This document shows positions 10,969 to 28,163 of a DNA stretch of 64,000 bases, piece after piece. This stretch comes from an uncultured delta proteobacterium (GTDB lineage Bacteria > Desulfobacterota > Desulfobaccia > Desulfobaccales > 0-14-0-80-60-11), in contig CAWETI010000003.1 in NCBI GenBank assembly GCA_963812015.1, positions 1,216,001 to 1,280,000 on the forward strand, in the 5' to 3' direction. Positions within the stretch are counted from its first letter, which is position 1; each line of letters opens with the position of its first letter. The translations under genes and the position numbers were made by a program. The notes beneath the pieces are model-generated. The model was not told the DNA's origin, did no database searches, and was given only the letters and a program-made list of their open reading frames with translations.

Positions 10969-11967
10969 ATGCGGCCTTCAACTAATCATCCTCTGTTTGA
11001 TCGAACTCGCCTGGAACTCTCACCTCTGGCGGAGAGAATCCATGATTTGGACATCAGTAGCATAAGAGAGGTCAAGGCGGTTCCCAGGGAAAATATTCCC
11101 CGGGAACTTACCCGGGTGGCCCAACGTATGGTCCAGGCCCGCCGGCAAGGCCGGGCCATTATTTTTATGCTGGGCGCTCATGTCTTGCGCGCCGGAGTGC
11201 AGCATTACCTCATTGATTTGATGGCTCGCCAATACGTTTCTTGCCTGGCGGGAAACGGGGCCTGCATGATCCACGACTTTGAGTTTGCCTTGCTTGGCGC
11301 TACTACTGAAAGCGTGGCAAGATACATCGTGGACGGGCGGTTCGGATTGTGGCTGGAGACGGGTTATCTCAACGATCTTATTAATGCTGCCTATCAGCAG
11401 AACCCCGCCTGCGGAATGGGTGAAACCGTAGGGAGAGCTATCCTGGAGGGAGATTACCCCTACAAGGACGTCAGCGTGTTTGCCGCCGCGGTCCGCTGGG
11501 GGGTGCCGGTGACGGTACATGTGGGCATCGGCTACGATATCATCCACGAACATCCCAATTGCAACGGCGCTGCCACAGGGCAGTTATCTTACAATGACTT
11601 TTTGCGCTTAGTCACCGTCGTGCAGGATTTGAAAAATGGGGTGGTGATGAACTTCGGGAGCGCGGTCATGGCGCCTGAAGTTTTTCTCAAGGCCCTGAGC
11701 ATGGCCAGGAACGTGGCCCGGCAGGAGGGAAGGGGGATCCGGAATTTTTGCTCCCTGGTATGTGATATCCGGGACCTGTCCGGGGATTTCACCCAGGAAC
11801 CTCCCAAGACTTCCCCCGCCTATTATTTTCGCCCGTGGAAAACCATGTTAGTCAGGGCCGTTCAAGAAGGTGGGGAAAGCTTTTATGTCCGGGGCTTACA
11901 CGACGAGACCATTCCGGCGTTATGGACGGCCATAGGCGAGGCCGAAACTCAAACGGGGGCAGGTTGA
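10969..11967 (+). CDS. Conserved hypothetical protein with deoxyhypusine-synthase-like fold
   Basis: IIFMLGAHVLRAG, NGACMIHDFE, SVFAAAVRWGVPVTVHVGIGYDIIH and GVVMNFGSAVMAPEVFLKAL follow the order of DHS-like segments. Confidence 0.6.
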   Translation: MRPSTNHPLFDRTRLELSPLAERIHDLDISSIREVKAVPRENIPRELTRVAQRMVQARRQGRAIIFMLGAHVLRAGVQHYLIDLMARQYVSCLAGNGACMIHDFEFALLGATTESVARYIVDGRFGLWLETGYLNDLINAAYQQNPACGMGETVGRAILEGDYPYKDVSVFAAAVRWGVPVTVHVGIGYDIIHEHPNCNGAATGQLSYNDFLRLVTVVQDLKNGVVMNFGSAVMAPEVFLKALSMARNVARQEGRGIRNFCSLVCDIRDLSGDFTQEPPKTSPAYYFRPWKTMLVRAVQEGGESFYVRGLHDETIPALWTAIGEAETQTGAG

Positions 11968-12458
11968 CCAAGAAAAAAGTATTTTCTTTAGGGGAGCTAT
12001 CCCGTCGGATAGCGAAACTGAAGAAACAGGGCAAGACGATCGTCCACTGCCATGGCTGCTTCGATCTGATGCATCCCGGCCACATCAAATACCTCCAGGC
12101 CGCCAAGCAAATGGGGAATATCTTAGTGGTCACGTTATCTCCTGACAAATACGTGGACAAAGGCCTGGGAAGGCCGGTATTCTCTGAAAAACTGCGGGCC
12201 GAGTGCCTCGCAGCCCTGGAGTGCGTGGATTATGTGGCCATCAATGAGTGGCCCACAGCGGAGGAAACGCTGCGTCTCCTCCGGCCGGATTATTATGTCA
12301 AAGGGCAGGAATTCGAAAAGATAGAGGATAAAACCGGAAAGCTCCAACGGGAATTTCAGGTAGTCCACGAGGTGGGCGGTACAATGCGTTTTACCCATGA
12401 AATCGTCTTTTCTTCCACAGAACTGCTGAATAAATATTTTCTGGCCAAGGAAGGGTAA
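11964..12458 (+). CDS. Stand-alone adenylyl/cytidylyltransferase (RfaE domain II / HldC-like)
   Basis: HGCFDLMHPGHIKYL (HxGH), RPVFSEKLRAE, YVKG, FSSTELL. The TTG start at 11964 overlaps the upstream TGA. Confidence 0.9.
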   Translation: MTKKKVFSLGELSRRIAKLKKQGKTIVHCHGCFDLMHPGHIKYLQAAKQMGNILVVTLSPDKYVDKGLGRPVFSEKLRAECLAALECVDYVAINEWPTAEETLRLLRPDYYVKGQEFEKIEDKTGKLQREFQVVHEVGGTMRFTHEIVFSSTELLNKYFLAKEG

Positions 12459-12471
12459 AAGAGGCCTCACC

Positions 12472-14025
12472 ATGCCTGGAAAGGATAAGATCCTTAGCAT
12501 CGTCGAGCTCGGCAACGTGGTGGCAAACCTGCAGAGACAAGGCAAGACGGTGGTCCAATCCCACGGCGTCTTCGACATCATTCATCCCGGCATCATCCAG
12601 CACCTCAGTGAGGCGGCTGCTCTGGGAGATTTGCTAGTGGTGACGATCATCAAGGACAAGGATGTGCGGCGGGGACCGGGGCGGCCGGTGTTCCCGGAAA
12701 GGCTGCGGGCCGAAAATGTCGCGGCCCTAGAATTAGTGGATTACGCCTGCGTGGTGGACGACGATATTCCCTTTGAATGCGTGAAAAGCCTTAACCCCGA
12801 TATTTTTGCCAAAGGGCAAGCTTATAAAGAACGGGATCGGAAGATCCACCGCAAGATCTTTAGGGAAGAACGGCAACTATATTTCGGGAAGAGCAAGCTT
12901 ATTGAAACCAAAAGTTTTTCCTTTAGCGCTTCGGAGATCATTAACCATCTGCTGGGAATTTATCCGGAGGAAACCCAACTTTTCTTGCACGACTTTGCCC
13001 AGAAATATTCTTTTGATGATATCGCCCGCAGGATCGATAGTCTCAGTGATCTCAAAGTGCTAATTATTGGAGATAGCATTATTGACGAATACCATTTTTG
13101 CAGTCCTATGGGTAAATCAGCCAAGGCGCAATTGGTGGTCAACCAATATTTGAGCCACGAGGTATACCCCGGAGGGGTCTTAGCTGTGGCGAACCATGTG
13201 GCGGCGGTATGTCAGGAAGTGACCCTGATAACGATGTTAGGCCAAGAAAATTCCCGGGAAGACTTTATAAGGGCGAACTTGAACCCTATTATCAAAGGAA
13301 AGTATTTTTATCGGGAGGACGGGCCTACAGTAATAAAAAAACGATATATAGATCGCTACAATAACCAGAAGTTATTTGAAATTAATTATATTAAAAACCA
13401 GAATATTAACGGAAAATCTGAAACCTCAATTATTGACGGCCTGAGGGAACAAATCCCACGGCACGATCTGGTGATGGTGGCTGATTTTGGCCACGGCCTG
13501 ATTACCCCACGGATGGTCCAGGCCATGGGGCAATACGCCCACCTGTTAGCCGTGAACACTCAGACTAATGCGGCCAACGTCGGCTTCAACATGATCACCA
13601 AGTATCGAAGTCCCAGGTTTGCGTGTCTATCCGAGGAGGAAGCGCGCCTGGCCATGCAGAATAAAATCGACGATATCAGCGTGGTAGCTAAAGGACTGGC
13701 CAAGACCCTGGGAACGGAAAGGCTCATTGTCACGTTAGGGAAAAAAGGTTCGTTAGGGGTGGACCGGCAAAACAACCTCCATTTTACTCCTATTTTTTCC
13801 CCCAAGGTGGTGGATACGGTGGGGGCCGGGGACGCGGTCTTTTCCTACGCCGGCCCCTGTTCCGCCAAAGGTGTGCCCTTGGACTTGACCGCGTTCGTGG
13901 GCAATGTGGTGGGCGCCCTTGCGGTTCAGATCATGGGCAACAAGGAAGCGGTGAAGAAATATGCCGTGCTGGAATTTATCAGCACCCTGCTAAAGCAAGG
14001 CAGTTCCAGACCAATTAACGGTTAG
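12472..14025 (+). CDS. Fused nucleotidyltransferase-like plus PfkB sugar kinase (HldE-related, reversed domain order)
   Basis: N-terminal HGVFDIIHPGII; C-terminal IIGDSIIDEY, VADFGHG, VTLGKKG, VDTVGAGD. Confidence 0.88.
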   Translation: MPGKDKILSIVELGNVVANLQRQGKTVVQSHGVFDIIHPGIIQHLSEAAALGDLLVVTIIKDKDVRRGPGRPVFPERLRAENVAALELVDYACVVDDDIPFECVKSLNPDIFAKGQAYKERDRKIHRKIFREERQLYFGKSKLIETKSFSFSASEIINHLLGIYPEETQLFLHDFAQKYSFDDIARRIDSLSDLKVLIIGDSIIDEYHFCSPMGKSAKAQLVVNQYLSHEVYPGGVLAVANHVAAVCQEVTLITMLGQENSREDFIRANLNPIIKGKYFYREDGPTVIKKRYIDRYNNQKLFEINYIKNQNINGKSETSIIDGLREQIPRHDLVMVADFGHGLITPRMVQAMGQYAHLLAVNTQTNAANVGFNMITKYRSPRFACLSEEEARLAMQNKIDDISVVAKGLAKTLGTERLIVTLGKKGSLGVDRQNNLHFTPIFSPKVVDTVGAGDAVFSYAGPCSAKGVPLDLTAFVGNVVGALAVQIMGNKEAVKKYAVLEFISTLLKQGSSRPING

Positions 14026-14097
14026 GGAAGGGGGATGGGGTTTACACCACCCCCGGAGAAGGCGTAAAGGGCTGGCCATGAAGCCGGGAGTGATAAG

Positions 14098-14685
14098 TTG
14101 AAGGACTTTGCCGATAGATATTACCACGATTTAAAAAGTCTCGTGGACGGTTTGATGGTCACGGACGCGCAGGGGAGCTCGCGGGAATTTTCTCAGGGGA
14201 TGGGGCAAGCAGCGGACTTGATTGTCGAGCGGACCAAAGCGGGTTACAAAATGCTCTTTATCGGCAATGGCGCCAGCGCTGCCATCTCCAGCCACATGGC
14301 CACGGACTTCTGGAAAAACGGGGGGATGAGGGCCTTGGCTTTCAATGACGGCGTCCTCCTGACTTGTTTGGGCAATGATTACGGTTACGAGCAGGTCTTT
14401 GCCAAACCTATCCAGATGTTTGCCGATCCTGGGGATGTGTTGATGGCGATTAGCAGTTCCGGCCAGTCGCCCAACATCCTCTTTGGGGTTCAGGCAGCCC
14501 GGCAAAAAGGCTGCCAGGTCATCACCCTGTCGGGCTTTAAGCCTGACAATCCCTTACGCTCCCTGGGGAATTATAATTTTTATGTGCCGGCCTCCACTTA
14601 CGGCGCGGTGGAGATTCTGCACCATTCCATCTGTCATTGCCTCTTGGACATGATCAATCAGAGAAAGCCGATAGAATCATCCTAA
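14098..14685 (+). CDS. SIS-domain phosphosugar isomerase (divergent GmhA-like)
   Basis: GNGASAAISSH, GNDYGYEQVF, GDVLMAISSSGQSPNI, ITLSG. Confidence 0.85.
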   Translation: MKDFADRYYHDLKSLVDGLMVTDAQGSSREFSQGMGQAADLIVERTKAGYKMLFIGNGASAAISSHMATDFWKNGGMRALAFNDGVLLTCLGNDYGYEQVFAKPIQMFADPGDVLMAISSSGQSPNILFGVQAARQKGCQVITLSGFKPDNPLRSLGNYNFYVPASTYGAVEILHHSICHCLLDMINQRKPIESS

Positions 14686-14703
14686 AGGGAAGAAGACCTA
14701 TAT

Positions 14704-15702
14704 ATGAGCAAAGCCAAAAAAGTCATGGTCACGGGCGGGGCTGGTTATGTTGGGGCGGTTTTGGCGCCCAAACTCCTGGCCCGAGGACACCAGGTCAAGG
14801 TTATTGACCTCTACATCTACGGTGCAGACGTCTTAAAGGCCGTCCAAGATAATCCTCGCCTCATCCAGGTGAGAGGAGACATTCGTGACCGGGGGTTGCT
14901 GGCCAGAGAGATTTCGGGGTATGACACGGTTATTCACCTCGCCTGTATTTCTAACGATCCCAGCTATGAACTGAATCCTACCCTCGGCAAGTCCATCAAT
15001 TACGACGCCTTTGTCGATCTGGTGGAAATAGCCAAGCAGGCGGGGGTCCGGCACTTTATCTACGCCTCCAGTTCCAGTGTTTACGGCATTAAAGATGAAC
15101 TCGAGGTAACCGAGGATCTGCCCCTCGCCCCGTTGACCGACTACTCCAAGTACAAGGCCAAGTGCGAAGAATACCTGGATGGGGCGGCCACGGACGATTT
15201 TATCGTCACCACTATCCGACCGGCGACGGTCTGTGGCTACTCGCCGCGGCAGCGCCTGGACCTGACCGTGAACATCCTGACAAATCATGCGGTTAACCGC
15301 GGGAAAATCACGGTATTCGGCGGAGAGCAGAGAAGACCCAACCTCCACATTGAGGACATGACGGATTTATACCTTTTCCTGCTCGGCCAACCGCCGGAGA
15401 AAATCCACCGGAAGATCTACAATGTCGGCTACCAGAATTACACCGTCCGTGAGCTCGCAGAAATGGTGCGGGACACCCTGAGCGGCGATATCGTCATCGA
15501 AACCACCCCCACGGATGATATCCGCTCCTATCACGTGTCCTCCCAAAAGATTAAGGAGGAGCTGGGCTTCGAGGCCAGGCACACCATCCAGGATGCCGTC
15601 CGGGACTTAAAGAGGGCATTCGTTGCGGGTCTTTTGCCCAATTCCATGGAGGACAGCCGGTACTATAATATCAAGACCATGATAGCCACCAATCTCCAAT
15701 GA
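14704..15702 (+). CDS. NAD-dependent epimerase/dehydratase (extended SDR)
   Basis: VTGGAGYVG, YASSSSVYG, YSKYK, RPATVCGYSPRQRLDL. Confidence 0.92.
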   Translation: MSKAKKVMVTGGAGYVGAVLAPKLLARGHQVKVIDLYIYGADVLKAVQDNPRLIQVRGDIRDRGLLAREISGYDTVIHLACISNDPSYELNPTLGKSINYDAFVDLVEIAKQAGVRHFIYASSSSVYGIKDELEVTEDLPLAPLTDYSKYKAKCEEYLDGAATDDFIVTTIRPATVCGYSPRQRLDLTVNILTNHAVNRGKITVFGGEQRRPNLHIEDMTDLYLFLLGQPPEKIHRKIYNVGYQNYTVRELAEMVRDTLSGDIVIETTPTDDIRSYHVSSQKIKEELGFEARHTIQDAVRDLKRAFVAGLLPNSMEDSRYYNIKTMIATNLQ

Positions 15703-15715: not shown

Positions 15716-16816
15716 ATGAGAGTTTCGTTCTCCTACTTAAAGGAACAATTTAAAGACCACCAGGTCTACCTGGACAAAATTTCAGAGGTCGTAACGACCG
15801 GCGATTACACCCTGGGCAAGGCGGTCACCGAATTTGAGCAGAGGTTCGCCGCCCTTTTGGGGGCGAAGTATGCCATCGGGGTAAACTCAGGCACGGATGC
15901 CTTGTTCCTTTCGCTTAAGGCCATGGGGGTGGGTCCCGGAGACGAAGTGATCACCACCCCCAACACCTTTATTGCCACCGTGGGGGCCATCGTCGCCTCG
16001 GGGGCCCGACCGGTGTTCGTTGACTGTAATGATGAATATGTCATTAATGCCGACCTCATCGAACCGGCCATCACCTCCAGGACCAGGGCCATCATGCCGG
16101 TGCATTACGCCGGCGTGGCGGCCGACATGGATAAGATCATGGCCATGGCCCACCAACACGGGCTGCCGGTCATCGAGGACGCCTGTCAGGCCATTTTGGG
16201 GGCCTTGCAGGGAAAATGCGCCGGGACCTTTGGTTTGACCGGGGCCTTTAGTCTCCACCCTTTAAAGAACCTCAACGTCTGGGGCGACTCAGGGGTGATC
16301 ATCACTGATAACGAGGAGATTCGGGATCGGCTGGTGTTGCTCCGCAACCACGGCCTGGTCAACCGGGATGAAGTAGCGTGCTTCGGGTATAATAGCCGGC
16401 TTGACACGATCCAGGCCGCGGTGGGCAACCACTTGATTCAAGAGATCCACTGGATCACCGAAACCAGGATTAAATGGGCTAATAGGTTAGACCAGGCCTT
16501 GTTCCAGCTCTCCGGCTGCATCACGGTGCCCCGAAGACGGCCTCACAAACGCTATGTCCACCACCTTTACATGGTGCAAGCCCGAGACCGGGACAAGTTG
16601 CTCGCCTTTCTGGAAAGCAACGGCATCGAGGCCAAGGTGCATTATCCCATGCCTTTGCATCTGCAAAAGTGCTCCGCCCATTTGGGTTATCAGGCAGGCG
16701 ACTTTCCCGTCACCGAGGCGCTGGCCCAATCGATTATCACCTTGCCGGCGCACCAGCATCTCAAGGAAGAGCATATCGACTATGTTATCGAAAAAATTCG
16801 GGAATTTTATTTGTAA
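15716..16816 (+). CDS. DegT/DnrJ/EryC1/StrS aminotransferase
   Basis: VNSGTDAL, PVHYAG, EDACQA, FSLHPLKNLNVWGDSG, GYNSRLDTIQAA. Confidence 0.93.
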   Translation: MRVSFSYLKEQFKDHQVYLDKISEVVTTGDYTLGKAVTEFEQRFAALLGAKYAIGVNSGTDALFLSLKAMGVGPGDEVITTPNTFIATVGAIVASGARPVFVDCNDEYVINADLIEPAITSRTRAIMPVHYAGVAADMDKIMAMAHQHGLPVIEDACQAILGALQGKCAGTFGLTGAFSLHPLKNLNVWGDSGVIITDNEEIRDRLVLLRNHGLVNRDEVACFGYNSRLDTIQAAVGNHLIQEIHWITETRIKWANRLDQALFQLSGCITVPRRRPHKRYVHHLYMVQARDRDKLLAFLESNGIEAKVHYPMPLHLQKCSAHLGYQAGDFPVTEALAQSIITLPAHQHLKEEHIDYVIEKIREFYL

Positions 16817-16821
16817 ACGCC

Positions 16822-17922
16822 ATGCAAGTCAAATACCTGGATCTTCCCCGGCAGTTTGATGATCCCGAACTCCTCCGGTTGGTCACCGGGGTGTTTGCTC
16901 GCGGCCAGTTTGTCTTGGGACCGGAAGTTGCCGAATTTGAGGGGGAATTAGCTAAACTCTGCGGCACCCGGTTCGCCGTGGGGGTTAATTCAGCCACCGA
17001 TGCCCTCTTCCTGGCCTTGAAGGCCTTGGGGGTAGGCTCTGGGGACGAAGTGATCACGGTGTCCAACAGTTTCATCGCCACCGCCGGGGCGATTGCGGCG
17101 GCCGGGGCCAGACCGGTGTTCGTGGATGTGGGCCCTGATTATAATATGGATGCAGATCTTCTGGAAAAAGCCCTTACCTCCCGCACCAGGGCTATCCTGC
17201 CGGTCCACCTTACCGGAAACCCGGCAGACATGCCCAAAATTATTCGGGTGGCCAAGAAACACTCCCTATTCGTGGTGGAGGATGCCGCCCAGTCTGTGGG
17301 CGCCGCCTTTAACGGGAAGTGCGTGGGTTCCTTCGGAGAGGTTGGCTGTTTCAGTCTCCACCCCCTGAAGAACCTAAATGTTGCGGGAGATGGGGGGGTA
17401 ATGACCACCGGTTCCCCGGAGTTGCATAATCGTTTGGCCCTCTTGCGCAATCATGGGTTAAAAAACCGGGAGGAAATCGATTTTTTCGGTTATAATTCTC
17501 GGTTAGACACCATTCAGGCCGTGGTGGCCAAATATAACTTGGAATTCTTGGATCAGGTTACCGAAAAGCGCATTCAGAATGCCAGGCTTTATGACCAGTT
17601 GTTGGCTGATCTGGAAGACGATGTGGTTATTCCGCCTCGGAACCCGGAGGTTAAACAAGTCTTCCACACTTATGTGATCCAGGTGAACCACCGGGAAAAG
17701 CTTATTGAATATCTGAGCAGGCACCAGGTTGAGACCAAGATTCATTACCCAATTCCCATCCACCTCCAGACTCCCTGCCGTGCCATGGGATGGAAGTCCG
17801 GGGACTTGCCGGAAACGGAAAGACAGGCCGGTCGGATTCTGACGTTGCCCATCCATCAGTTTCTTACCGAGGCCCACATACACTACGTAGCCGCGACTAT
17901 GAAAAAATTTTATCGGAGGTAG
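16822..17922 (+). CDS. DegT/DnrJ/EryC1/StrS aminotransferase (tandem paralogue)
   Basis: Start MQVKYLDL at 16822; PVHLTG, EDAAQS, FSLHPLKNLNVAGDGG, GYNSRLDTIQA. Confidence 0.93.
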   Translation: MQVKYLDLPRQFDDPELLRLVTGVFARGQFVLGPEVAEFEGELAKLCGTRFAVGVNSATDALFLALKALGVGSGDEVITVSNSFIATAGAIAAAGARPVFVDVGPDYNMDADLLEKALTSRTRAILPVHLTGNPADMPKIIRVAKKHSLFVVEDAAQSVGAAFNGKCVGSFGEVGCFSLHPLKNLNVAGDGGVMTTGSPELHNRLALLRNHGLKNREEIDFFGYNSRLDTIQAVVAKYNLEFLDQVTEKRIQNARLYDQLLADLEDDVVIPPRNPEVKQVFHTYVIQVNHREKLIEYLSRHQVETKIHYPIPIHLQTPCRAMGWKSGDLPETERQAGRILTLPIHQFLTEAHIHYVAATMKKFYRR

Positions 17923-17929: not shown

Positions 17930-18265
17930 ATGCCTTCGTCACGCCAAGCCGCCCGATATCTCCTCGCACATTCGCATCGAGCTTTTTAAGATGATAGTTT
18001 TGATTCGCGGGTTCAAGGAAAAGATCATCGAGGTTTACGGCCGTGAGGATATAACGTTGCCCGTACGCCCTGGTATCGGCCAAGGGGGCATCGCGATTGA
18101 GAGGTGTGCCCGTCTGGCGGGTGAGGACTATATGGTGACGGGCCACCACGGTCAAGGGCATTGCCTGGCCGAAGGGCTGGACCCCAGAGCGTTATGGGGA
18201 ATCCTCCGGCAGGGCAACGGGTTGCTGGCTGGGGGCGAGCAGTTCTATGCATCCTGCGAGAGAAA
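17930..18265 (+). pseudogene. Degraded N-terminal fragment of a TPP-dependent E1 alpha gene
   Basis: LFKMIVLIRGFKEKIIEVY...PVRPGIGQGGIA...DYMVTGHHGQGHCLAEG, then shifted-frame ESSGRATGCWLGASSSMHPA, aligns to the intact copy at 26137 (MLRIRRFEEKIIELY...PVHLCIGQEAIA...DYIFTTHRNHGHCLAKG...EFYGKATGCSRGKGGSMHPV). Confidence 0.85.
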
Positions 18266-18295
18266 CCACAAAGCAATTGTGCAAGGTGTAGATCG

Positions 18296-19099
18296 ATGAG
18301 CGAAGGTATAGAATTTTCCGTAATTATGCCTGCACTTGATGAGGAAAAGAACATTACCTTTGCCATTCGTAATGCTTTGGAGGCTATCGACCATTTCGGC
18401 ATTAATGGCGAAATTATCGCGATCAACGATGGTAGCAGCGACAGGACGGCAGCTCTGATTAAGTCTTATATGGGGTGCGATCCTCGAGTTCGGCTTATTT
18501 CTCATGTTCGACCAATGGGGGTAGGGGCTTCTTTTTGGGATGGAGTGGATCAGGCTCAAGGGAAATTCGTCGTCATGCTCCCCGGAGATAATGAAAACGA
18601 TCCCATGGAAATCTTTCGTTACCACACCCTCCTCAAAAGTGTGGATATCGTGATTCCGTTTGCCTTTAACAAACATGTCCGTTCAATCTGGCGCAATGCC
18701 CTCTCTTTTATTTACCGCTTTATTATTAATACGACTTTTTTGGTCAATTTTAATTACACCAATGGCACGGTGCTCTATAGGAAAGCGCTCTTGGATGAAC
18801 TGGAATTTAGAAGCTCCAGCTTCTTTTTCCAAACCGACATCCTGGTGCGCACCATCAAGCGCGGCTATCTCTTTGCCGAGGTGCCTTATCGTCTGGACTT
18901 GCGCTCCGAGGGGGTCTCCAAAGCCGTCACCTTCCCCAGCCTGTTCATGGTGATCTGGGGGTATCTGCGTCTGACCCGTGATATCTACCGGCCGATCCGG
19001 AGGAACGCGACCCAATGCCATGCGTCTTCTTCTCAAACCGCAAAGCGCTATCAGGAATGTGTCAACCGGGAACGCGCCGATTCCAACATCAAACACTAA
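18296..19099 (+). CDS. GT2 glycosyltransferase, DPM1/ArnC-like (probable polyprenyl-phosphate glycosyltransferase)
   Basis: SVIMPALDEE, INDGSSDRT, MLPGDNE, AEVPY. Start MSEGIEF at 18296. Confidence 0.85.
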   Translation: MSEGIEFSVIMPALDEEKNITFAIRNALEAIDHFGINGEIIAINDGSSDRTAALIKSYMGCDPRVRLISHVRPMGVGASFWDGVDQAQGKFVVMLPGDNENDPMEIFRYHTLLKSVDIVIPFAFNKHVRSIWRNALSFIYRFIINTTFLVNFNYTNGTVLYRKALLDELEFRSSSFFFQTDILVRTIKRGYLFAEVPYRLDLRSEGVSKAVTFPSLFMVIWGYLRLTRDIYRPIRRNATQCHASSSQTAKRYQECVNRERADSNIKH

Positions 19100-19109
19100 T
19101 GGTCAAGAG

Positions 19110-20153
19110 ATGAAAGAGTTTCTCAAGGTTGCCCAGGAAGCAATCCTGTTTCGCGTTCGGGATAAGATCACCCACCTCATTCTTCATGTGACCACCCGGT
19201 GTAATCTCAAGTGTCATCATTGTTTCGTTGAGCAAGGGACCAAGACGCAAGAACTTACCATGACGGAGATTGAACATATCGCTGCCGAATTAAACGACCT
19301 GATTTGGCTGGATATCGGGGGCGGAGAACCTTTCTTGCGGGACGATCTTCCTGAGATCATTAGCAAATTTAGAGCCCGGGAATATTCCATCCCTACGAAT
19401 GGCTGGTCGGTGGAACGTATCCTCCCCTCCCTGGAAAAAATTGCGTCGGCCATCGATTTAAACCGTCTCGTCCTCACTATGTCCCTGGACGGGTTTCCCC
19501 AAACCCATGATGCCATTCGCCGGCAACCTGGCAGTTTTGCCCGGACCCGGGAGACATATTTTCTGCTCCGCCAACACTTTCCCCAATTGCGCATCAAGTT
19601 CAACACGGTCTTACACAATCACAACATCGAAGAAATTATCCAATTCATGCGGATGGTCCAGGACGAAATGAAGCCGGCATTTCATTCCGTATTGTTTTTG
19701 CGTGGAGTGCCACAGAATTCGGGTTACTTGCTGCCCGCGCCGCAGGAAATTTCTAATCTTGAAGGGCAGTTGCGATCTATTCAAAATAAGTATCATTATG
19801 GCAGGAAGGGTTTATTATCGATGGTGCAGAAGAATTATCAAGCCATCAAACGGGATATTTGTAACAGAATCATTGAACAAAAAGAACAAATCATACCATG
19901 TTTGGCCGGACAGGCCCATGCCGTGATCTACGCCAATGGCGGGGTGGCGCCCTGCGAATTGCTTCCTGAAATCGGTTCTATTCGCGAAAAGCCGTTAAGC
20001 AATATATTGAACAGCCCCGAATGGAAAAAGGCCATAAATGACATTAAATCAAAGAAATGTTATTGCACGCATGATTGTAATATGATCGAAAATATTCTCT
20101 TTAAGTTTAGCCATTATCCACAATTTATATTGGGCTCTAAGTATAAGCTGTGA
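19110..20153 (+). CDS. Radical SAM protein with SPASM/Twitch domain
   Basis: TTRCNLKCHHC, GGGEPFLR, PTNG, SLDG; C-terminal CLAG...GGVAPCE...CYCTHDC. Confidence 0.92.
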   Translation: MKEFLKVAQEAILFRVRDKITHLILHVTTRCNLKCHHCFVEQGTKTQELTMTEIEHIAAELNDLIWLDIGGGEPFLRDDLPEIISKFRAREYSIPTNGWSVERILPSLEKIASAIDLNRLVLTMSLDGFPQTHDAIRRQPGSFARTRETYFLLRQHFPQLRIKFNTVLHNHNIEEIIQFMRMVQDEMKPAFHSVLFLRGVPQNSGYLLPAPQEISNLEGQLRSIQNKYHYGRKGLLSMVQKNYQAIKRDICNRIIEQKEQIIPCLAGQAHAVIYANGGVAPCELLPEIGSIREKPLSNILNSPEWKKAINDIKSKKCYCTHDCNMIENILFKFSHYPQFILGSKYKL

Positions 20154-20175: not shown

Positions 20176-21084
20176 ATGGGAAAAAGCAACGCGGCTGAGA
20201 TCAGCATCGTGATCCCGGTTTATAATCCCCCAGATAGTTTCTTCGAACTTCTTAAGGACCTATCCCTTCAAAAGATAAACATCGCCCGTGAGATCATAAT
20301 AGTTGATGACTGTTCCTTAAGTGATGGATATTCGCGACTAAAAAAACACCTTGGCACCTTAGATATTTCCAATATTAACCTGTTGCGCACCCCGAAGAAT
20401 CTCGGCCCGGCCGCGGCGCGTAATCTTGGCAGCGCCCAAGCGACGGGGAGCGTCTTAATCTTCATCGACTCAGATTGCCGCATCAGGGAGCGGGACCATC
20501 TATCTCGCATGCATGCAGCACATTTGCAGCATCCGCACGCCATTATCGGCGGGGGCGTCGTCGGCTTCGGCAAGGGATACGTAGCGTTTTCCGACAACTA
20601 CTGTCATTGGGGCACCAATATCCCCGGAACTCCTGGCACTGCTTTGGCTTCGGGACATCTGGTGACGGCCCATTTGTTGATACCCCGGGCTATTTGGGAA
20701 AAAGTTGGGCCCTTTGACCCGTCCCTGCGTACCGGCGAAGATACAGCTTTCTGCCTCAAGGCCCGGAATCTTAATATTGAGTTGCGACTGCACGGAAATA
20801 TCTCTTTATATCATCATGATCGTGAATCATTTAAGATGTTCGTTAAGAATTTTTATAAGGTGGGAAAAGATCGGGCGGCAGTGCGAAGATCAGTTTATGG
20901 CAGGGTTCCGTGGTATCTTGGGGAAAATAGATTGGTGCGTTGCCTTTTGGTGCCCTTTATTACTTCCGGCTTAATAGTAAAACTGATCGTCACGTGGTGG
21001 CCCCACGATAAAAAAGTGTTATTGGCCTTCCCGGGTATTTCTCTTGGTATGCTGTCGCTGGCAATCGGGGTCGCTGATAGCTAA
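20176..21084 (+). CDS. GT2 glycosyltransferase with C-terminal membrane segments
   Basis: SIVIPVYN, VDDCS, GPAAARNLG, FIDSD, GPFD...GED; hydrophobic C-terminus. Confidence 0.9.
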   Translation: MGKSNAAEISIVIPVYNPPDSFFELLKDLSLQKINIAREIIIVDDCSLSDGYSRLKKHLGTLDISNINLLRTPKNLGPAAARNLGSAQATGSVLIFIDSDCRIRERDHLSRMHAAHLQHPHAIIGGGVVGFGKGYVAFSDNYCHWGTNIPGTPGTALASGHLVTAHLLIPRAIWEKVGPFDPSLRTGEDTAFCLKARNLNIELRLHGNISLYHHDRESFKMFVKNFYKVGKDRAAVRRSVYGRVPWYLGENRLVRCLLVPFITSGLIVKLIVTWWPHDKKVLLAFPGISLGMLSLAIGVADS

Positions 21085-21299: not shown

Positions 21300-22331
21300 G
21301 TGAGTAAAGCAATGCGCTTTGGTGCACCAGCAATTGTGTTTGACTTGGGCGGAACTCATCTGAGAGGGGCCACGGTCCTGGAGGGTGGCGGCCTGATCAA
21401 TATCGAGAAACGTAAAGTTCGCAATTTTTTGGATGGCAGTTCGATAACCGAGGTTTGGAACAGTCTCTTTGATCAGATCGCGTCGTATGTCTCTGTCTTC
21501 GGGGGCAGCTTGCCTTCGCCAGCGCCAGTGGTGCTGGCGGTGCCCGGACCGGTTCGGGGGCGGAGGATATTATTGGACGCGCCGACGCTCGTGGGCCATG
21601 CCGGGGCCATTCCTGATGTCAAGTCCATTCTGGAGGAGCGCACCGGCCGCCGGGTCTTCATTCTGAATGACGTATCGGCGGCGACCTGGTACTTCAGCGA
21701 GAAGGTGGCCGATGATCGGTTTATGGTCATTACCGTGAGCAGTGGGATCGGCAGCAAGGTGTTCGACCGCCGCCACCCATTAAGGGTATTGGACGACGTT
21801 GAATACGGCGGAGAAATTGGTCACGGGGTCGTGGGTGACTTTCCAGAGCGCATTCGATGTGATTGCGGGGGCTTAAACCATGTGGGGGCGATTTCATCCG
21901 GGAGGGGTATTGTGCGTTTGGCCCAGTTATGGGCCCGGCGCGACCGGCAGCAATTCAATAGCTCGGCGCTGGGGCGGTCGGTGTGCGGCAATCCGGAGCA
22001 GCTCACGAATGAGGATCATATCGTTCCAGCAGTCATCGAGGGCGACCAATGGACCTTAGGTGTCGTAGAATATGCCACGCGACCACTGGCCCAGGCTATA
22101 CTGACCACCTGGCTGGCCATAGGACTGTCCCGAGTCATCGTGATCGGCGGCTTCGCACTGGCATTGGGGTGCCATTACGTCGGCATCTTGGAGAACGAAT
22201 TGCAGAGGTTGTCAGATTACAAATTACTCCGGGGGTGCACCGGCGGGATGGTGACCTTGGGGCAACCGGATGAAGAGGCCTGCCTGATTGGAGCTGCCGT
22301 ATACGTCCAGAGGGAAAATAGCGGCGTTTGA
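21300..22331 (+). CDS. ROK family kinase resembling C7-cyclitol 7-kinase (ValC-like)
   Basis: FDLGGTHLR, LNDVSAA, TVSSGIGSKVF, YGGEIGH, CDCGGLNH, GAISSGRG, IGGFALALG. Confidence 0.85.
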   Translation: MSKAMRFGAPAIVFDLGGTHLRGATVLEGGGLINIEKRKVRNFLDGSSITEVWNSLFDQIASYVSVFGGSLPSPAPVVLAVPGPVRGRRILLDAPTLVGHAGAIPDVKSILEERTGRRVFILNDVSAATWYFSEKVADDRFMVITVSSGIGSKVFDRRHPLRVLDDVEYGGEIGHGVVGDFPERIRCDCGGLNHVGAISSGRGIVRLAQLWARRDRQQFNSSALGRSVCGNPEQLTNEDHIVPAVIEGDQWTLGVVEYATRPLAQAILTTWLAIGLSRVIVIGGFALALGCHYVGILENELQRLSDYKLLRGCTGGMVTLGQPDEEACLIGAAVYVQRENSGV

Positions 22332-22662: not shown

Positions 22663-23769
22663 ATGAGCGAGCTTATCTTGGATGGGCACAAGCTCGCCTG
22701 GCATAGGGAGCGGGTGGAGGCATGGCTGCGGGGGGAACGCATCGCGCCCATCACCATCGACTGCGCCCTGACCCGGCGCTGCACCTATAGGTGTGTTTAT
22801 TGTTATGGCCAGTTGCAGGCCAACGACGAAAAGCGCATGACCCGGGACGTGATTTTCCGCTTTTTGGATGACGCCGCGGAAATTGGGGTTAAGGCCATAA
22901 GTTTTGTGAGCGACGGGGAAAGCACCTGTAGCCCGCACCTTTACGATGCCATCCTGCGGGGCCATGAGAATGGTCTGGACATAGCCCTGGGCACGAACGG
23001 TTATCTGCTCAGACCGGAGCGGCTTCCGGAAATTCTTCCCGCCCTGACTTACCTGCGATATAACGTCTCGGCTGCCGAACCCCAGCGGTATGCGGCAATC
23101 CACGGATGCAATCTGGAGGCGTATTATCGGGTTCTGGAAGTTATCCAAAGAAGTGTAGCCCTGAAACGCCAAAATGGGCTGGAGGTCACCATCGGTCTCC
23201 AGATGGTCCTCATGCCGGAGTTCGCCGACCAAATCATCCCTCTGGCTAAACTGGGGGCCTCTCTGGGGGTAGATTATCTGGTGATCAAACATTGCAGCGA
23301 TGATGAGGTGGGGAGCCTGGGGGTCAACTATGCGAAATACTTTGAGCTTCTTGACCTGCTGGCCGAGGCCGAAACGTATTCCACCGACCACTATATCGTC
23401 AGGGCCAAATGGTCCAAAATCTTGAGCGGTGGGAAGCGCAAGTATGTGCAATGCTATGGTCCTCCCTTTATCATGCAATTTTCGGGTTCCGGTCTGGTAG
23501 CTCCCTGTGGCATGCTGTTCAACTCAAAGTATAAAAAATATCATATCGGCAATATTGCCGTAACTCCCTTTAAAGAAATCTGGAAGAGCGAGAGATATTG
23601 GGAGGTAATCAACCTGATTGCCTCGGATAAATTTAATGCCCGGACCATGTGCGGCTCTTTGTGTTTGCAGGACAAGGTCAACGAATTCCTCTGGAATTTT
23701 AGGCACGGATGTGAAGCTCTCCCGGATGTAGCCGGCAGACCGGAACCACTGCATATCAATTTTATTTAA
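22663..23769 (+). CDS. Radical SAM protein with SPASM/Twitch domain
   Basis: TRRCTYRCVYC, SDGES, GTNG; C-terminal QCYGP...GLVAPC...IGN...EIW...CGSLC. Confidence 0.92.
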   Translation: MSELILDGHKLAWHRERVEAWLRGERIAPITIDCALTRRCTYRCVYCYGQLQANDEKRMTRDVIFRFLDDAAEIGVKAISFVSDGESTCSPHLYDAILRGHENGLDIALGTNGYLLRPERLPEILPALTYLRYNVSAAEPQRYAAIHGCNLEAYYRVLEVIQRSVALKRQNGLEVTIGLQMVLMPEFADQIIPLAKLGASLGVDYLVIKHCSDDEVGSLGVNYAKYFELLDLLAEAETYSTDHYIVRAKWSKILSGGKRKYVQCYGPPFIMQFSGSGLVAPCGMLFNSKYKKYHIGNIAVTPFKEIWKSERYWEVINLIASDKFNARTMCGSLCLQDKVNEFLWNFRHGCEALPDVAGRPEPLHINFI

Positions 23770-23946
23770 CATCAAAAGTCGGGGCCAGCCAGAATCTGGA
23801 CCAGAGGCGTCTATCTTGGGGAAGACCGCTCACCTCTTTTTTCTTCACACGCCTTTGTCGCGGCCTTTCTTCCCGGCATACTTTAATGTCTCGACCATTC
23901 TACTTTCTCTGGCCATACTCCCTCATAAGGAGATGGAGATTAAGTC

Positions 23947-24465
23947 ATGAACATTCTGCTGTACGGGCTATCCCTGTTTTTTCTTGCCTTTGGGATTCAC
24001 CTGATAATCTGGAAAGTCCATTTGCCTCATCACCAGAGCAAGGCCCTTCTGCTGATCTTTATGGGAACGTTTTTCCTTGGGGTAATCATCACCCCGCTAT
24101 TACCCCAGGACGGACTCTGGGGCTGTTTCGTTGCCCGGGGTTTCTATGAAGTGGTTCACGCTTTTTTGCTGGTTCTTTCCCTTACCATGGCCTACATCAT
24201 CACCTATTCGGCCCTGGAGGCGGATAGCCCGTCACTGGTAATCATAAGGATGATCGCCGAGGCCATGCCCGGTGGCTTGGCAAAAAAGGACTTGGAAAAC
24301 CGATTGACGGATGACATTTTGATCCGCCCCAGGATAAATGATCTGTTACGGGATAATCTTGTAATCGCGCAGGGGGAAAAATTACGACTTACGCCCCAAG
24401 GGCGATCTTTTATTAAAATATTTGTAATCTTTCGGGCCCTCTTAAAATCTGGCAAAGGTGGTTGA
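23947..24465 (+). CDS. Hypothetical membrane protein (about 3 TM plus winged-helix-like C-terminus)
   Basis: Hydrophobic N-terminal half; soluble SPSLVIIRMI...GLAKKDL...RINDLLRDNLV...LRLTPQGR. Confidence 0.75.
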   Translation: MNILLYGLSLFFLAFGIHLIIWKVHLPHHQSKALLLIFMGTFFLGVIITPLLPQDGLWGCFVARGFYEVVHAFLLVLSLTMAYIITYSALEADSPSLVIIRMIAEAMPGGLAKKDLENRLTDDILIRPRINDLLRDNLVIAQGEKLRLTPQGRSFIKIFVIFRALLKSGKGG

Positions 24466-25000
24466 GATGACCATGTATGAACAAGCCCTACCGATTTTTA
24501 CCCCAATTTTCGGCATGACAATAAACGTTGTTATACAGATATTGGGTTTCCGGATTAAGAGTAACTTATCTCTGCTGCACACAATTTATTTGGGCTTTTT
24601 ATCTGGTCTGATCACTATGATTGTTCTTGATTTGGCTATTCAGGCTCATTATAAAAATAGCTTTCATTATTTTGTGGGAATATTTATTTCAAATATAATA
24701 ATATATGGCAGTCTTGGATATTGTTATTTTAATTTTAATAATTTAGGAGAAACTGCTCGGCGAATAAGATTATTGCGGGAAATTTATGATTCTGAAGATG
24801 GCCTTACGCCACTTGAGTTAAATAAACTCTACAGTGGTAAAGAAGTGATAGCACATCGAATGGCAAGGCTTTTGAATAATAAACAGGTTATTTTAATAAA
24901 TGATAAGTACCTAATCGGCAACCCAACTGTATTATGTATCGCTAACATTATAATTTTCCTCAAATTTATGGTCATTGGGAAAAAATCAGAGTTTGATTAA
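24458..25000 (+). CDS. Hypothetical membrane protein, distant paralogue of the preceding gene
   Basis: Overlaps the upstream stop; about 3 TM, then ETARRIRLLREI...GLTPLEL...RMARLLNNKQV; AT-rich. Confidence 0.75.
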   Translation: MVEMTMYEQALPIFTPIFGMTINVVIQILGFRIKSNLSLLHTIYLGFLSGLITMIVLDLAIQAHYKNSFHYFVGIFISNIIIYGSLGYCYFNFNNLGETARRIRLLREIYDSEDGLTPLELNKLYSGKEVIAHRMARLLNNKQVILINDKYLIGNPTVLCIANIIIFLKFMVIGKKSEFD

Positions 25001-25029
25001 TTCGATTTTAGGGGTAATCGATCGACTCT

Positions 25030-25272
25030 CATCGGCACCGCGACCATGATTTTTTGCAGGGCGTGACGAATTCCCGGCCTGAGGTCATTGGCATTAGCGT
25101 GATTACCTGCTCACATGACGGCGTTATCAATTTTGCTCCCAACTCAAAGAAGCAATGCCTGCTGTGACGGCGGTGAAAGGCGATCTCCATCCGGTCTATT
25201 TCCCGGATGTTATCCGGGAAGAACCGATCGATGTTATGGCCCAGGGGGCGGAATTATCTTTCCCGGAACCAT
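25030..25272 (+). pseudogene. Remnant of the B12-binding domain of a radical SAM gene
   Basis: Manual translation across a frameshift: DHDFLQGVTNSRPEVIGISVITCSHDGVINFA / QLKEAMPAVTAVKGDLHPVYFPDVIREEPIDVMAQGAELSFPE, resembling the PDVIGFS...GGPHPTFFP...VDIICRGEGE pattern. Confidence 0.7.
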
Positions 25273-25540
25273 CACCCGTCTTCCGTAGCTATGATTGCTG
25301 GCTGAAGCCGAGGGTAGTAGGTTAAAGATAAACAAGAAGGATATGAGAATGATGTCGTACTGCTTGCTAATGATATTTCATGTTTGCTTAATCCTGAACC
25401 ATGAATGGTATCTTAAATATATCTTATACCGCAAGCAGAACGAAATGCCTTTCAGCGCAACCTAATATTATCAGTTGCGCTTGAGTTCGTTATTGTTTGC
25501 ATGCGGAACTTATTTTATTAATATGGATATGGAGGTAGCG

Positions 25541-25915
25541 ATGGTTAAATCATTAATACTCATTTTCTTCAATATACTTATTGGCAGTGTTGGTCAGCTT
25601 ATGTTTAAAAGTGGCATGATGCAGGTAGGCAGGATTGGAGTTGGGGAGATAAGCCGGCCATTGGCAACGTTGGGAACGGTTTTCACTAATCCTTATATAT
25701 TATTGGCCCTGCCCCTCTATGCCGGCGCGTTAATAATGTGGCTGATCGTTCTCTCCCGACTGCAGCTCAGTTTTGCTTATCCATTTTTGGCCATGACATA
25801 TGTGGTTAATGCTTTACTGGCGCAAACAATTCTGGGCGAGCATATCCCTTTTCTCAGATGGGTTGCCATAGGTTTAATCTGCAGTGGGGTTATTCTGATT
25901 ACGCGCACGGCATAA
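25541..25915 (+). CDS. EamA/SMR small membrane transporter (ArnE/ArnF-like)
   Basis: GGAGG plus ATG at 25541; GQLMFKSG, WLIVLSRLQLSFAYPF, LGEHI. Confidence 0.88.
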   Translation: MVKSLILIFFNILIGSVGQLMFKSGMMQVGRIGVGEISRPLATLGTVFTNPYILLALPLYAGALIMWLIVLSRLQLSFAYPFLAMTYVVNALLAQTILGEHIPFLRWVAIGLICSGVILITRTA

Positions 25916-26136
25916 GCAACCGGTATGGCCCATCTGGGGCTGGTCCGGCCCCACTTTCACCAGCCGGGTGGAGTTTGCTCCTGAGTCTCACTGTCCCAGG
26001 CCAACCAGGTGTGCGCAACAGAAGAACCGGTGGGGGAGGGGTTGCTTGGGGCATTTATTGAACCGGCCTGGTACTGCCTAAAGACGGCCATAATAGTTCT
26101 CGACTTTAGCTTTCAAACATTAACAGGAGAAAACCG

Positions 26137-27117
26137 TTGGCCAGGATCCCTTTAAAAACCATGAAGCATCTTTTATTTACCATGCTCAGGATCAGACGCT
26201 TTGAAGAAAAGATCATCGAGCTTTACCCGGCACAAAATATGAGGACACCGGTGCATTTATGCATCGGCCAAGAGGCGATTGCCGCGGGGGTATGTGAGAA
26301 TCTGAAGAGAGGGGATTATATTTTCACTACGCACCGGAATCATGGTCATTGCCTGGCCAAGGGGATAAATATCGATTCTTTAATAGCGGAGTTTTACGGG
26401 AAGGCTACCGGGTGCTCCCGAGGCAAAGGGGGTTCCATGCACCCCGTTGCCCCCGAATGCGGCATCTTAGGAACCTCGGCCATTGTGGGCGGCTGCATTG
26501 CCCTGGCAGCGGGAACCGCTTTGGCGTCCAGGCTCAGGCGAGATGGTAAGATCTCCGTGGCTTTTTTCGGTGACGGCGCCGCGGACGAAGGCATCTTTCA
26601 TGAAAGCCTTAATTTTGCCGCGTTAAAAAACCTGCCGGTCCTGTTTATTTGCGAAAACAATTTTTATGCTACTAATTCGCCGCAGGCCGCCAGGCAACCC
26701 CACGACAATATCGCTAAAAGAGGGGCAAGTTACCATATCCCGGGGGTGCAGGTCGATGGCAATGATGTCCTCCAAATATTTCAAACGGTAAAGAAGGCCG
26801 CGGCCAGGGCCCGGGTGGGCAGGGGGCCCAGTCTGATAGAGTGCCGAACCTATCGCTGGAAGGGGCATGTAGGGCCTGATTGTGATTATGAAAAAGGTTG
26901 CCGCCCGGAAGGGGAACTGCGGGATTGGATGAGGAGATGTCCCATTGAATTGTTTCAAAGTCATATTCTGGCCAATAAGATCATGAGCGCCGCGGAAATA
27001 AATCTCTTTATTGAAACCATTGATAAAGAGCTGGCCGCGGCAGTTAAATATGGCCAAGAGAGCCCGTTCCCTGATACAACTGACCTGATTAAAAATGTCT
27101 ATTATGAACGGAAATAA
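26137..27117 (+). CDS. TPP-dependent 2-oxoacid/acetoin dehydrogenase E1 alpha-like subunit
   Basis: HLCIGQEA, THRNHGH, GKGGSMH, FFGDGA...CENN (TPP motif), TYRWKGHVG. Confidence 0.93.
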   Translation: MARIPLKTMKHLLFTMLRIRRFEEKIIELYPAQNMRTPVHLCIGQEAIAAGVCENLKRGDYIFTTHRNHGHCLAKGINIDSLIAEFYGKATGCSRGKGGSMHPVAPECGILGTSAIVGGCIALAAGTALASRLRRDGKISVAFFGDGAADEGIFHESLNFAALKNLPVLFICENNFYATNSPQAARQPHDNIAKRGASYHIPGVQVDGNDVLQIFQTVKKAAARARVGRGPSLIECRTYRWKGHVGPDCDYEKGCRPEGELRDWMRRCPIELFQSHILANKIMSAAEINLFIETIDKELAAAVKYGQESPFPDTTDLIKNVYYERK

Positions 27118-27119
27118 CT

Positions 27120-28163
27120 ATGCCTTGGACTAAGGTTTTTATTGACCAGGATGATTTCGACAACCTCCCGGACCGGGAAGGCTGGCGCTGGATTACTTAT
27201 CGTGACAGCCTACGTGAGGCTCAGTTGCAGATGCTTCACCATGATGAACGGGTGTTTATTCTTGGCGAGGGCGTTGACGATCCCGGGGGGATATTCGGCA
27301 CCACCGCGGGGCTCTACGAAATATTCGGCAAAGACCGGGTGATGGATGTCGCCATTGCGGAAAATGGCTTGACCGGAGTGGCGATGGGAGCCGCTTTGGC
27401 CGGGATGAAACCGATCTTTGTGCATATGAGAATGGACTTTTTGCCGATTTGCCTGGACCAGATTATCAATCATGCGGCCAAGTGGCATTATATGACCGGC
27501 GGGAAGGTCAACGTTCCTCTGGTGATCAGGAGTATTATCGGGCGGGGGTGGGGCTCCGCAGCCCAGCATTCCCAGGCTTTGCACGCCCTTTTCCTCCATA
27601 TTCCGGGTCTAAAAGTGGTCATGCCGGCCACCCCTTATGATGCCAAGGGACTGCTCATTGCGGCCCTCGATGATGGCAACCCGGTGATGTTCATAGAGCA
27701 TAGATGGGTTTATGACTATAAGGGCCATGTGCCTGAAGAGATTTATAAGGTGCCCCTGGGCCAGGGAATAATCAGGCGTCAGGGAAAAGATGTAACCGTT
27801 GTCGCCCTATCCCAGATGGTCTATGAAGCGGGAAAGGCCGGCAAAGTCCTGGCTGCCGAGGGCATAGAGATTGAGATTATTGATCCTAGGACCCTAAACC
27901 CCCTGGACGAAGAACTCATCTTCGAATCGGTGAAAAAGACTGGAAGGCTGGTCATTGGGGATGTCGGTTGTCGAACCGGAGGAGTTGGGGCAGAGATAGC
28001 TTCCCGGGTGGCTGAAAAGGCCTTTACTTTTTTAAAAGCGCCGGTGGCCATAGTTGCCCTGGCTGATACGCCTTCCCCGGCCTCTTATGCCTTGGAAATG
28101 GCCTATTATCCGGGGGCGGCGCAAATTATCGCCGGTGTCAAAGGGGTAATGGGGGTAAATTAG
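27120..28163 (+). CDS. TPP-dependent dehydrogenase E1 beta-like subunit
   Basis: ILGEGV, IAENGLTG, DQIINHAAK, AQHSQ, PYDAKGLL, FIEHR, IDPRTL. Confidence 0.93.
   Translation: MPWTKVFIDQDDFDNLPDREGWRWITYRDSLREAQLQMLHHDERVFILGEGVDDPGGIFGTTAGLYEIFGKDRVMDVAIAENGLTGVAMGAALAGMKPIFVHMRMDFLPICLDQIINHAAKWHYMTGGKVNVPLVIRSIIGRGWGSAAQHSQALHALFLHIPGLKVVMPATPYDAKGLLIAALDDGNPVMFIEHRWVYDYKGHVPEEIYKVPLGQGIIRRQGKDVTVVALSQMVYEAGKAGKVLAAEGIEIEIIDPRTLNPLDEELIFESVKKTGRLVIGDVGCRTGGVGAEIASRVAEKAFTFLKAPVAIVALADTPSPASYALEMAYYPGAAQIIAGVKGVMGVN

Follow-up and report, generated by a model that had tools for sequence, protein, structure and literature searches.

A 64,000-nucleotide stretch of DNA from an uncultured delta proteobacterium of the Desulfobaccales (assembly GCA_963812015.1, contig CAWETI010000003.1, positions 1,216,001 to 1,280,000), referred to here as the window, contains a run of 17 open reading frames (ORFs), g01 to g17, that spans 10969..28163 on the plus strand. 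The ORFs follow the order listed in an earlier note on this DNA, and their Pfam and NCBIfam profile matches agree with the labels given there, confirming the co-directional block of named families that the note had described. The block contains a cassette predicted to act in sugar biosynthesis, and the core of this cassette and its possible product are considered here. The features of the block are the following.

10969..11967, plus strand: g01, GSU2086 family, with a fold like that of deoxyhypusine synthase (DHS) and ArgZ-C; predicted heptose C6-epimerase, accessory to the core.
11835..12458, plus strand: g02, stand-alone RfaE-II-type nucleotidyltransferase (CTP_transf_like) with an intact HxGH motif; likely start near 11967.
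12472..14025, plus strand: g03, reversed HldE-like fusion with the CTP_transf_like nucleotidyltransferase domain first and the PfkB kinase C-terminal; core.
14098..14685, plus strand: g04, GmhA-like SIS isomerase (SIS_2); core.
14704..15702, plus strand: g05, extended short-chain dehydrogenase/reductase (SDR; Epimerase), predicted C4-dehydrogenase of a nucleoside diphosphate (NDP)-heptose.
15716..16816, plus strand: g06, DegT aminotransferase 1; best PDB match 3uwc, expectation value (E) 4.5e-124.
16669..17922, plus strand: g07, DegT aminotransferase 2; likely start 16822.
17958-18258 (approximately), plus strand: decayed remnant of the E1-alpha gene of a thiamine diphosphate (ThDP) enzyme, directly after g07, where relatives keep E1 alpha/beta.
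18161..19099, plus strand: g08, soluble family 2 glycosyltransferase (GT2) of the ArnC/GtrB/DPM1-like type, predicted polyprenyl-phosphate sugar synthase; likely start 18296.
18978..20153, plus strand: g09, radical S-adenosylmethionine (SAM) protein with SPASM-type cysteines; likely start 19110; accessory.
20176..21084, plus strand: g10, GT2 with two C-terminal transmembrane helices; accessory.
21300..22331, plus strand: g11, ROK kinase of a ValC-like subfamily, likely a passenger without a cyclase partner.
22663..23769, plus strand: g12, radical SAM protein with a Radical_SAM and SPASM match and Twitch-type cysteines, predicted keto-group maker; core.
23947..24465, plus strand: g13, three transmembrane helices and a small soluble domain.
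24458..25000, plus strand: g14, three transmembrane helices; distant paralogue of g13 (hhalign 90%, E 1e-6).
25475..25915, plus strand: g15, ArnE/ArnF-like small transporter (E 4e-11, below cut-off).
26137..27117, plus strand: g16, ThDP E1-alpha with an intact GDG...NN motif, predicted two-carbon carboligase; core function.
27120..28163, plus strand: g17, ThDP E1-beta.

The cassette core consists of the reversed-HldE kinase, the SIS isomerase, a nucleotidyltransferase, g12 and a ThDP enzyme, and it is present in several phyla and in phages. Among 350 genomes of the phylum, g03 is found in 16, g12 in 6 and both in four (on one contig in three of these), which is above chance (hypergeometric 4e-5, with kin that are not independent). 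At the 16 g03 loci that were fetched, GSU2086 and SIS genes occur in 12 each, a ThDP enzyme in 11 and a g12-type radical SAM in 9. Two genomes from other genera of the family, G029 and G021, keep 15 and 11 of the 17 genes, respectively; the enzymes of G029 are 63-75% identical to those of the block, and g11 and g15 are missing at its locus. Among 72,556 plasmids, 2 hold g03, and the same 2 are the only ones with g12. The Azospirillum oryzae plasmid NZ_CP054615 keeps 8 of the 17 genes in the order NT-PfkB (nucleotidyltransferase-kinase), SIS, SDR, E1-alpha, E1-beta, DegT, DegT, a hypothetical gene and g12 (60%). A scan of IMG/VR gave 83 viral g12 loci, 80 of which were kept (70 clusters at 90% identity). 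A ThDP enzyme lies in 68 of these 80 loci, and the kinase together with SIS lies in 44, all of which have the ThDP enzyme; SDR and DegT genes are present in 6 and 7, and GSU2086, ROK and EEVS genes in none of the 80. The co-conservation of the gene set claimed in the earlier note is therefore seen in a neighbourhood check of G029, G021, the plasmids and the viral loci. The idea of one 17-gene pathway did not survive this check and is rejected, because g09, g10, g11 and g15 are patchy and hence accessory.

Several viral contigs from a first scan, which overlaps the second, bear head, tail-tube or terminase genes. In the phage operons L147, L149, L150-L152, L154 and L155 the minimal core stands beside a GT41 or phrog_14945 glycosyltransferase, in some of them with head or tail genes. 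The combination of minimal core and glycosyltransferase in phage operons suggests virion glycosylation.

The block is a patchwork within a large surface-glycan island. Glycan genes fill the whole window and continue past both of its sides, so the block is no self-contained unit; the rest of the window has glycosyltransferases and WecA-, PglF- and Gmd-like genes, with NeuB and Wzx genes upstream and an O-antigen ligase downstream. Within the block, the E1-alpha remnant, a GC content that varies from 33 to 58% and intergenic gaps of up to 474 nucleotides are signs of a mosaic, and of 17 genomes of the same genus, a single one matches g03 at all, with 37% identity. Scans for promoters and terminators gave results near chance (28 versus 19±5 and 20 versus 20±5, respectively). 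Such a mosaic would be expected if the first genes led to NDP-heptose, plain or with a 4-amino group, and unrelated sugars were the targets of the radical SAM, E1 and remaining proteins. However, kinase, SIS, ThDP enzyme and g12 recur jointly in phage operons and plasmids, and no tailoring genes accompany canonical HldE and GmhA at their own loci in this genome, so that a loose assembly of this kind is improbable.

The ThDP enzyme g16/g17 is an alpha/beta pair that has the ThDP motif and lies within a sugar cluster, as in E1-type sugar-branching enzymes. The E2 acetyltransferase (PF00198) was not found in any of five E1-carrying genomes, the control search being positive in 10 of 14, and a pyruvate dehydrogenase is therefore rejected. 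The E1 pair follows the second DegT gene in G029 and G021. The remnant at the equivalent position in the block shows 72% nucleotide identity over 195 nucleotides to the E1-alpha gene of G029, and g16 shares short matches only. It thus seems that the block lost its original E1 pair at this site and that g16/g17, further downstream, took over the function.

The type of ThDP enzyme that accompanies g12 is variable. The slot is filled in the 68 viral loci by an E1 pair (42), a protein like acetohydroxyacid synthase (AHAS) or YerE (20) or a split transketolase (6), where a mini-E1 and a split transketolase were told apart by best match, which is a soft call. Each of the 40 long viral loci with a ThDP enzyme has exactly one type. 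On a quick g12 tree of these 68 viral rows and 6 cellular rows, which omits the 12 viral rows without a ThDP enzyme and L047, the type switches 11 times, the minimum possible being 2, and the AHAS-like label alone changes at least 5 times at well-supported branches. YerE-like, E1-type and transketolase enzymes are ThDP groups that branch sugars, and the branch ketone can be transaminated, according to the part of PMC12247030 available. That three unrelated ThDP families fill one slot, and that many phage copies are truncated (about 200 plus 170 amino acids), would also suit a simple reaction in which the enzyme cleaves or decarboxylates an oxidised heptose to give a shorter or ring-contracted sugar. 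This is very unlikely, given that the sugar roles of these families described in the available part of PMC12247030 are ligations.

The ketone for such a ligation would come from g12. Most minimal copies of the cassette show no SDR, and g12 is the only candidate oxidant found there, so g12 is the likely ketone source. C40, C44 and C47 (CxxxCxxC) as well as C264, C282, C330 and C334 are invariant among 13 g12 sequences. Against the PDB, the g12 profile has DesII (E 1e-7) among its best matches, and its C-terminal part has BtrN. The 120 best g12 homologues are 73-89% identical and come from Nitrospirae, Planctomycetes, Omnitrophica, a candidate phyla radiation (CPR) bacterium and a Nanoarchaeia archaeon; the family is large, with 6,394 of the 7,998 scored clusters at E 1e-60, and highly conserved, its members from several phyla and an archaeon sharing 74-79% identity. 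Close copies of the other radical SAM protein, g09, occur among the fetched g03 loci only in G029 and G323. At L032, L035, L036, L038 and L136, split transketolases are repeatedly accompanied by a conserved methyltransferase and by radical SAM paralogues of two more families.

The sugar itself is predicted from g02, g03 and g04. The nucleotidyltransferase domain of g03 has HPGI in place of HxGH, and its PfkB part has GAGD with Asp454. Since g03 has lost the histidine of this motif and g02 keeps it, g02 likely carries out nucleotidyl transfer and g03 phosphorylation. The same division is visible in relatives: HPGI or HPGV replaces HxGH in five of six close g03 copies (the sixth could not be matched to the motif), g03 has a stand-alone g02 with HPGH preserved as its neighbour in five of the close copies, and where g02 is lacking (13 copies), the fusion itself retains HxGH. 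Neither g02 nor g03 has the promiscuity motif (F/L)XXGRSTT described in PMC11573728.

The genome has housekeeping heptose genes elsewhere: a GmhA gene paired with a further GSU2086 gene, an HldE with the kinase domain first, GmhB and eight matches to GT9. HldD above cut-off was not found anywhere in it. Because this set is kept separately, the block is taken as a second, specialised pathway. It has no GmhB, HldD or GT9 gene, GmhB and GT9 genes lying about 75-80 kb past its end, and the statement in the earlier note that this is not an ordinary lipopolysaccharide (LPS) core operon holds. An LPS-core heptose operon is rejected on account of the separate set, the reversed domain order and low family scores: g04 gives 96 bits against a gmhA cut-off of 209, and g03 gives 155 against an HldE cut-off of 521. 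g04 is 35% identical to the housekeeping GmhA of this genome.

The divergence of g04 and g03 from GmhA and HldE would fit a different order of events, in which the ThDP enzyme first makes an octulose phosphate for the SIS isomerase, as in lincosamide-like C8 chemistry, or g12 dehydrates a C6-C7 diol to an aldehyde that the ThDP enzyme extends to a linear or carbocyclic C9 sugar. The split transketolases of some copies would suit this chain extension, and caryose and bradyrhizose are examples of carbocyclic nonoses. A literature search for genes behind bradyrhizose or caryophyllose gave only unrelated entries, however. E1-type and AHAS-like enzymes together make up 62 of the 68 viral ThDP loci, and the sugar precedents in the available part of PMC12247030 add to ketones. 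Chain extension is thus the main rival to a branched heptose, although an unlikely one.

The protein g01 may complete the heptose pathway as an analogue of HldD. It matches NF052581, the GSU2086 family, at E 6e-110, above the cut-off. Its structure model (predicted local distance difference test, pLDDT, 96.9) is closest to AgrE (Z 19.7, root-mean-square deviation (rmsd) 3.5, 219 residues aligned) and deoxyhypusine synthase (Z 19.2, rmsd 4.1, 272 aligned), the next folds being well below these two. The fold is DHS-like and not the SDR fold of HldD, so g01 is an analogue at most. A true deoxyhypusine synthase is rejected in view of the 10% structural identity and the heptose-gene context. Long GSU2086 homologues are fused to SIS, nucleotidyltransferase, HAD or PfkB domains in 17 of 25 cases picked from 150 listed. 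Among 201 genomes, 9 have both HldD and GSU2086, 32 HldD only, 124 GSU2086 only and 36 neither, and in 13 of the 22 HldD-carrying families no HldD genome has GSU2086 (kin are not independent). A transposon sequencing table for Geobacter shows GSU2086 mutants behaving like mutants of the flanking hldE and gmhA genes, with polarity possible (PMC5585712). Because of the fusions, the near-complementary distribution and the mutant phenotypes, g01 is modelled as a likely HldD analogue that replaces HldD by a different fold. A housekeeping gmhA-GSU2086 pair at L001:8057-9697, in a genome without HldD above cut-off, supports GSU2086 as a general stand-in for HldD. The available part of PMC13524815 cites a nickel-pincer cofactor for ornithine cyclodeaminases. 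All 5 carriers tested have LarC and LarE, yet so do 5-6 of 14 controls, and such a cofactor for g01 is a lead only.

The genes g05 to g07 would form an amination module. The best PDB match of g05 is 6vo6 (E 7e-44; next structure 1e-25), which we take to be Cj1427. g07 is 52% identical to g06 and matches 3uwc at E 4e-104 and 7b0d at E 1e-100; 3uwc presumably is a protein of the Coxiella O-antigen region. A model of g06 made without an alignment has a pLDDT of 39, and 3uwc is not in its Foldseek list. Cj1427 is described in the accessible part of PMC10680097 as a GDP-heptose C4-dehydrogenase of Campylobacter, and 4-oxidation of the heptose precedes amination in septacidin biosynthesis, as far as PMC9978623 is available. 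By analogy, g05 and the DegT pair resemble the SepI and SepG steps of septacidin.

Taken together, the core probably makes an NDP-heptose, a radical-SAM-derived ketone on it and then a two-carbon branch, with optional amination by SDR and DegT enzymes and export on a lipid carrier; gene content, motifs, folds, co-occurrence and module structure are observed directly, and substrate and product are read from them. g04 would isomerise sedoheptulose 7-phosphate, the g03 kinase would phosphorylate C1, housekeeping GmhB or another phosphatase would remove the 7-phosphate, and g02 would add the nucleotide. g01 may invert C6. The ketone would then arise through g12, acting as a radical dehydrogenase or dehydratase, and g16/g17 would use pyruvate to attach an acetyl group there, giving a hitherto unknown C9-type surface sugar. 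g05 with g06/g07 could aminate C4, the branch or both, either of this sugar or of a parallel one. Undecaprenyl phosphate would be charged with the sugar by g08, and g13, g14 and g15 would move the lipid-linked sugar across the membrane for a GT-C-type transfer. Gene content and co-conservation thus speak for the part of the earlier note that proposed a higher-carbon sugar, possibly aminated and lipid-linked, as probable, and against its aminocyclitol alternative. A bolder version, offered tentatively, is that the g12 family oxidises an NDP-heptose for branching by any of the three ThDP families, that this is a new route to C9 branched sugars or aminosugars of cell envelopes and phage particles, that its heptose comes from an epimerase outside the SDR family, possibly one with a nickel-pincer cofactor, and that it points to the role of the reversed-HldE gene of Coxiella.

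Several points weigh against this pathway. No ThDP enzyme is seen at 5 and no g12-type protein at 7 of the 16 g03 loci, mostly on short contigs, and no ThDP enzyme is seen at 12 of the 80 viral g12 loci; among those that do, the label of the small E1 and transketolase proteins is uncertain, as stated above. The match of g12 to DesII is weak and is tied with SkfB and MoaA. With g03 and g04 so far below the HldE and GmhA cut-offs, the substrate may be other than a heptose, and there is no GmhB within the block. The export genes are patchy, with g15 in no other fetched copy and g13/g14 in four.

In its workings the cassette resembles ADP-heptose activation combined with ThDP sugar branching, but it belongs to neither as defined. 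It shares with the ADP-heptose pathway (GmhA, HldE or HldA and HldC, GmhB, HldD) an SIS isomerase, a PfkB kinase and a cytidylyltransferase-like nucleotidyltransferase in one operon, but differs in the reversed domain order, the scores below cut-offs, the absence of GmhB and HldD and the linkage to radical SAM and ThDP enzymes. An orphan E1 alpha/beta pair without E2 in a sugar cluster is common to the block and the E1-type enzymes of aldgamycin, kibdelomycin and paulomycin, which are grouped here with YerE of yersiniose; the acceptors known from the available part of PMC12247030 are deoxy-keto-sugars such as CDP-3,6-dideoxy-4-keto-glucose, whereas for the block the predicted acceptor is a heptose that a radical SAM enzyme has oxidised. 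Oxidation of a heptose at C4, as predicted for the block, also occurs with septacidin (SepI/SepJ/SepA/SepG) and Campylobacter Cj1427, and in septacidin amination comes next. However, septacidin is an antibiotic that uses epimerases not seen in the block, and the parts of PMC9978623 and PMC10680097 available describe no ThDP or radical SAM step in either system. A published counterpart of the domain arrangement is that of Coxiella burnetii CBU0678, a reversed nucleotidyltransferase-kinase fusion that is needed for full-length LPS and whose function is stated to be unknown in the available part of PMC5843353. Compared by that description and not by alignment, CBU0678 is like g03 in its domain order, in its catalytic Asp (455 versus 454) and in being second to a canonical HldE; the partly available PMC13252051 and PMC13552124 are further sources on the Coxiella O-antigen region.

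No published description of the pathway was found in the open-licence literature searched (supplements, which could hold locus tables, were outside its scope), in agreement with the earlier view that the combination is not a characterised pathway. If the proposed pathway is true, the surface sugars of bacteria and phages would gain a new class, and nucleotide heptoses, which act as agonists of innate immunity (PMC11573728), would be the substrates of a new kind of radical chemistry. It gives testable roles to two large unstudied families, those of g12 and GSU2086, and to reversed-HldE proteins of unknown published function, and the phage version, with its five enzymes, is small enough to be rebuilt in vitro.

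A lipid-linked route is plausible and less secure than the core. g08 resembles ArnC, GtrB and DPM synthase, has no predicted transmembrane helix and is accompanied by g13/g14 in G029, G207 and G090. No family was assigned to g13 or g14 at E 1e-4, and Atlas searches returned unnamed clusters only. Upstream of the block, positions 8750-10228 encode a 492-residue membrane protein (GC 31%, about 8 predicted helices) that is a candidate transferase for the lipid-linked sugar, against which stands the E value of its GT-C-type match, 2e-4, below cut-off. A soluble GT2, a small transporter and a candidate GT-C protein upstream are shared with ArnC/ArnEF/ArnT and GtrABX; the block differs from these in that weak GT-C match and in the extra g13/g14 pair of no known family.

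The ROK kinase g11 raises the question of a C7N aminocyclitol decoration, in which a cyclitol made elsewhere would be phosphorylated by g11, activated, aminated and transferred. A ValC-like ROK kinase, DegT enzymes and a Twitch-type radical SAM protein are common to the block and the C7N aminocyclitol (ValA/ValC) and BtrN/BtrR systems. Homologues of g11 are often labelled C7-cyclitol 7-kinase and adjoin cyclases and DegT genes; the term ValC-like rests on these source labels and cyclase neighbours and not on an alignment to ValC. A DHQS-family cyclase lies near a g11-type ROK in 43 of the 80 metagenome loci that were retained out of 246 and that include several redundant ones; this count rests on tblastn, as the strict EEVS motif is present in only 4 of the 80. 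In addition, 7b0d, which g07 also matches, is a glutamine-scyllo-inositol transaminase, and the genome has a second DHQS-family gene.

Unlike those pathways, however, the block has a kinase that does not accompany the core. None of the 80 metagenome ROK loci has g01-g04 or E1, and a g11-type ROK was found neither in the 16 fetched g03 stretches nor in the 80 viral g12 loci. Two of 60 relatives carry this kinase, and a single-protein scan of GTDB contigs gave 3 loci only. G015 has an 82% identical ROK and no g03, the ROK copy of G029 is on another contig among unrelated genes, and a ROK between g10 and g12 is seen only here and in G323, where the copy is on another, short contig. Nor was an EEVS-type cyclase found in this genome: one of its two DHQS-family genes is AroB-like, and the second, on another contig and presumably EboD-like, is without the EEVS-type motif that was seen in ROK-linked cyclases. 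The cassette-bearing genomes G029 and G207 each have just one DHQS-family gene. Since most copies lack the kinase and the search of this genome gave no EEVS-type cyclase, the aminocyclitol branch of the earlier note is not upheld and an aminocyclitol product is highly unlikely; g11 is probably a passenger or salvage kinase.

At L039:8760-11381, the second DHQS-family gene adjoins an isomerase-like ORF, the two presumably being eboD/eboE. A natural ROK-cyclase fusion with the EEVS-type motif, 27% identical to g11, lies at L019:3352-5559 in a Dehalococcoidales genome, and L057-L134 include clusters of ROK, cyclase, DegT and SDR genes in many uncultured bacteria that resemble unstudied aminocyclitol pathways.

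Further genes lie 5' of the block in the window. On the minus strand, 637-6426 holds a C-methyltransferase, an RmlC-like epimerase, a methyltransferase, a DegT and an SDR gene, a separate cassette for a methyl-branched sugar, and 10268-10600, just 5' of g01, resembles the decayed start of a transposase that we take to be of the IS5 type. A B12-type radical SAM gene at 7052-8452, just upstream of the block, may belong to the pathway, because 56-57% identical copies lie close to the cassette in G228 and G359; a C-terminal fragment of this protein, 57% identical, is found at G000:C3:1210015.

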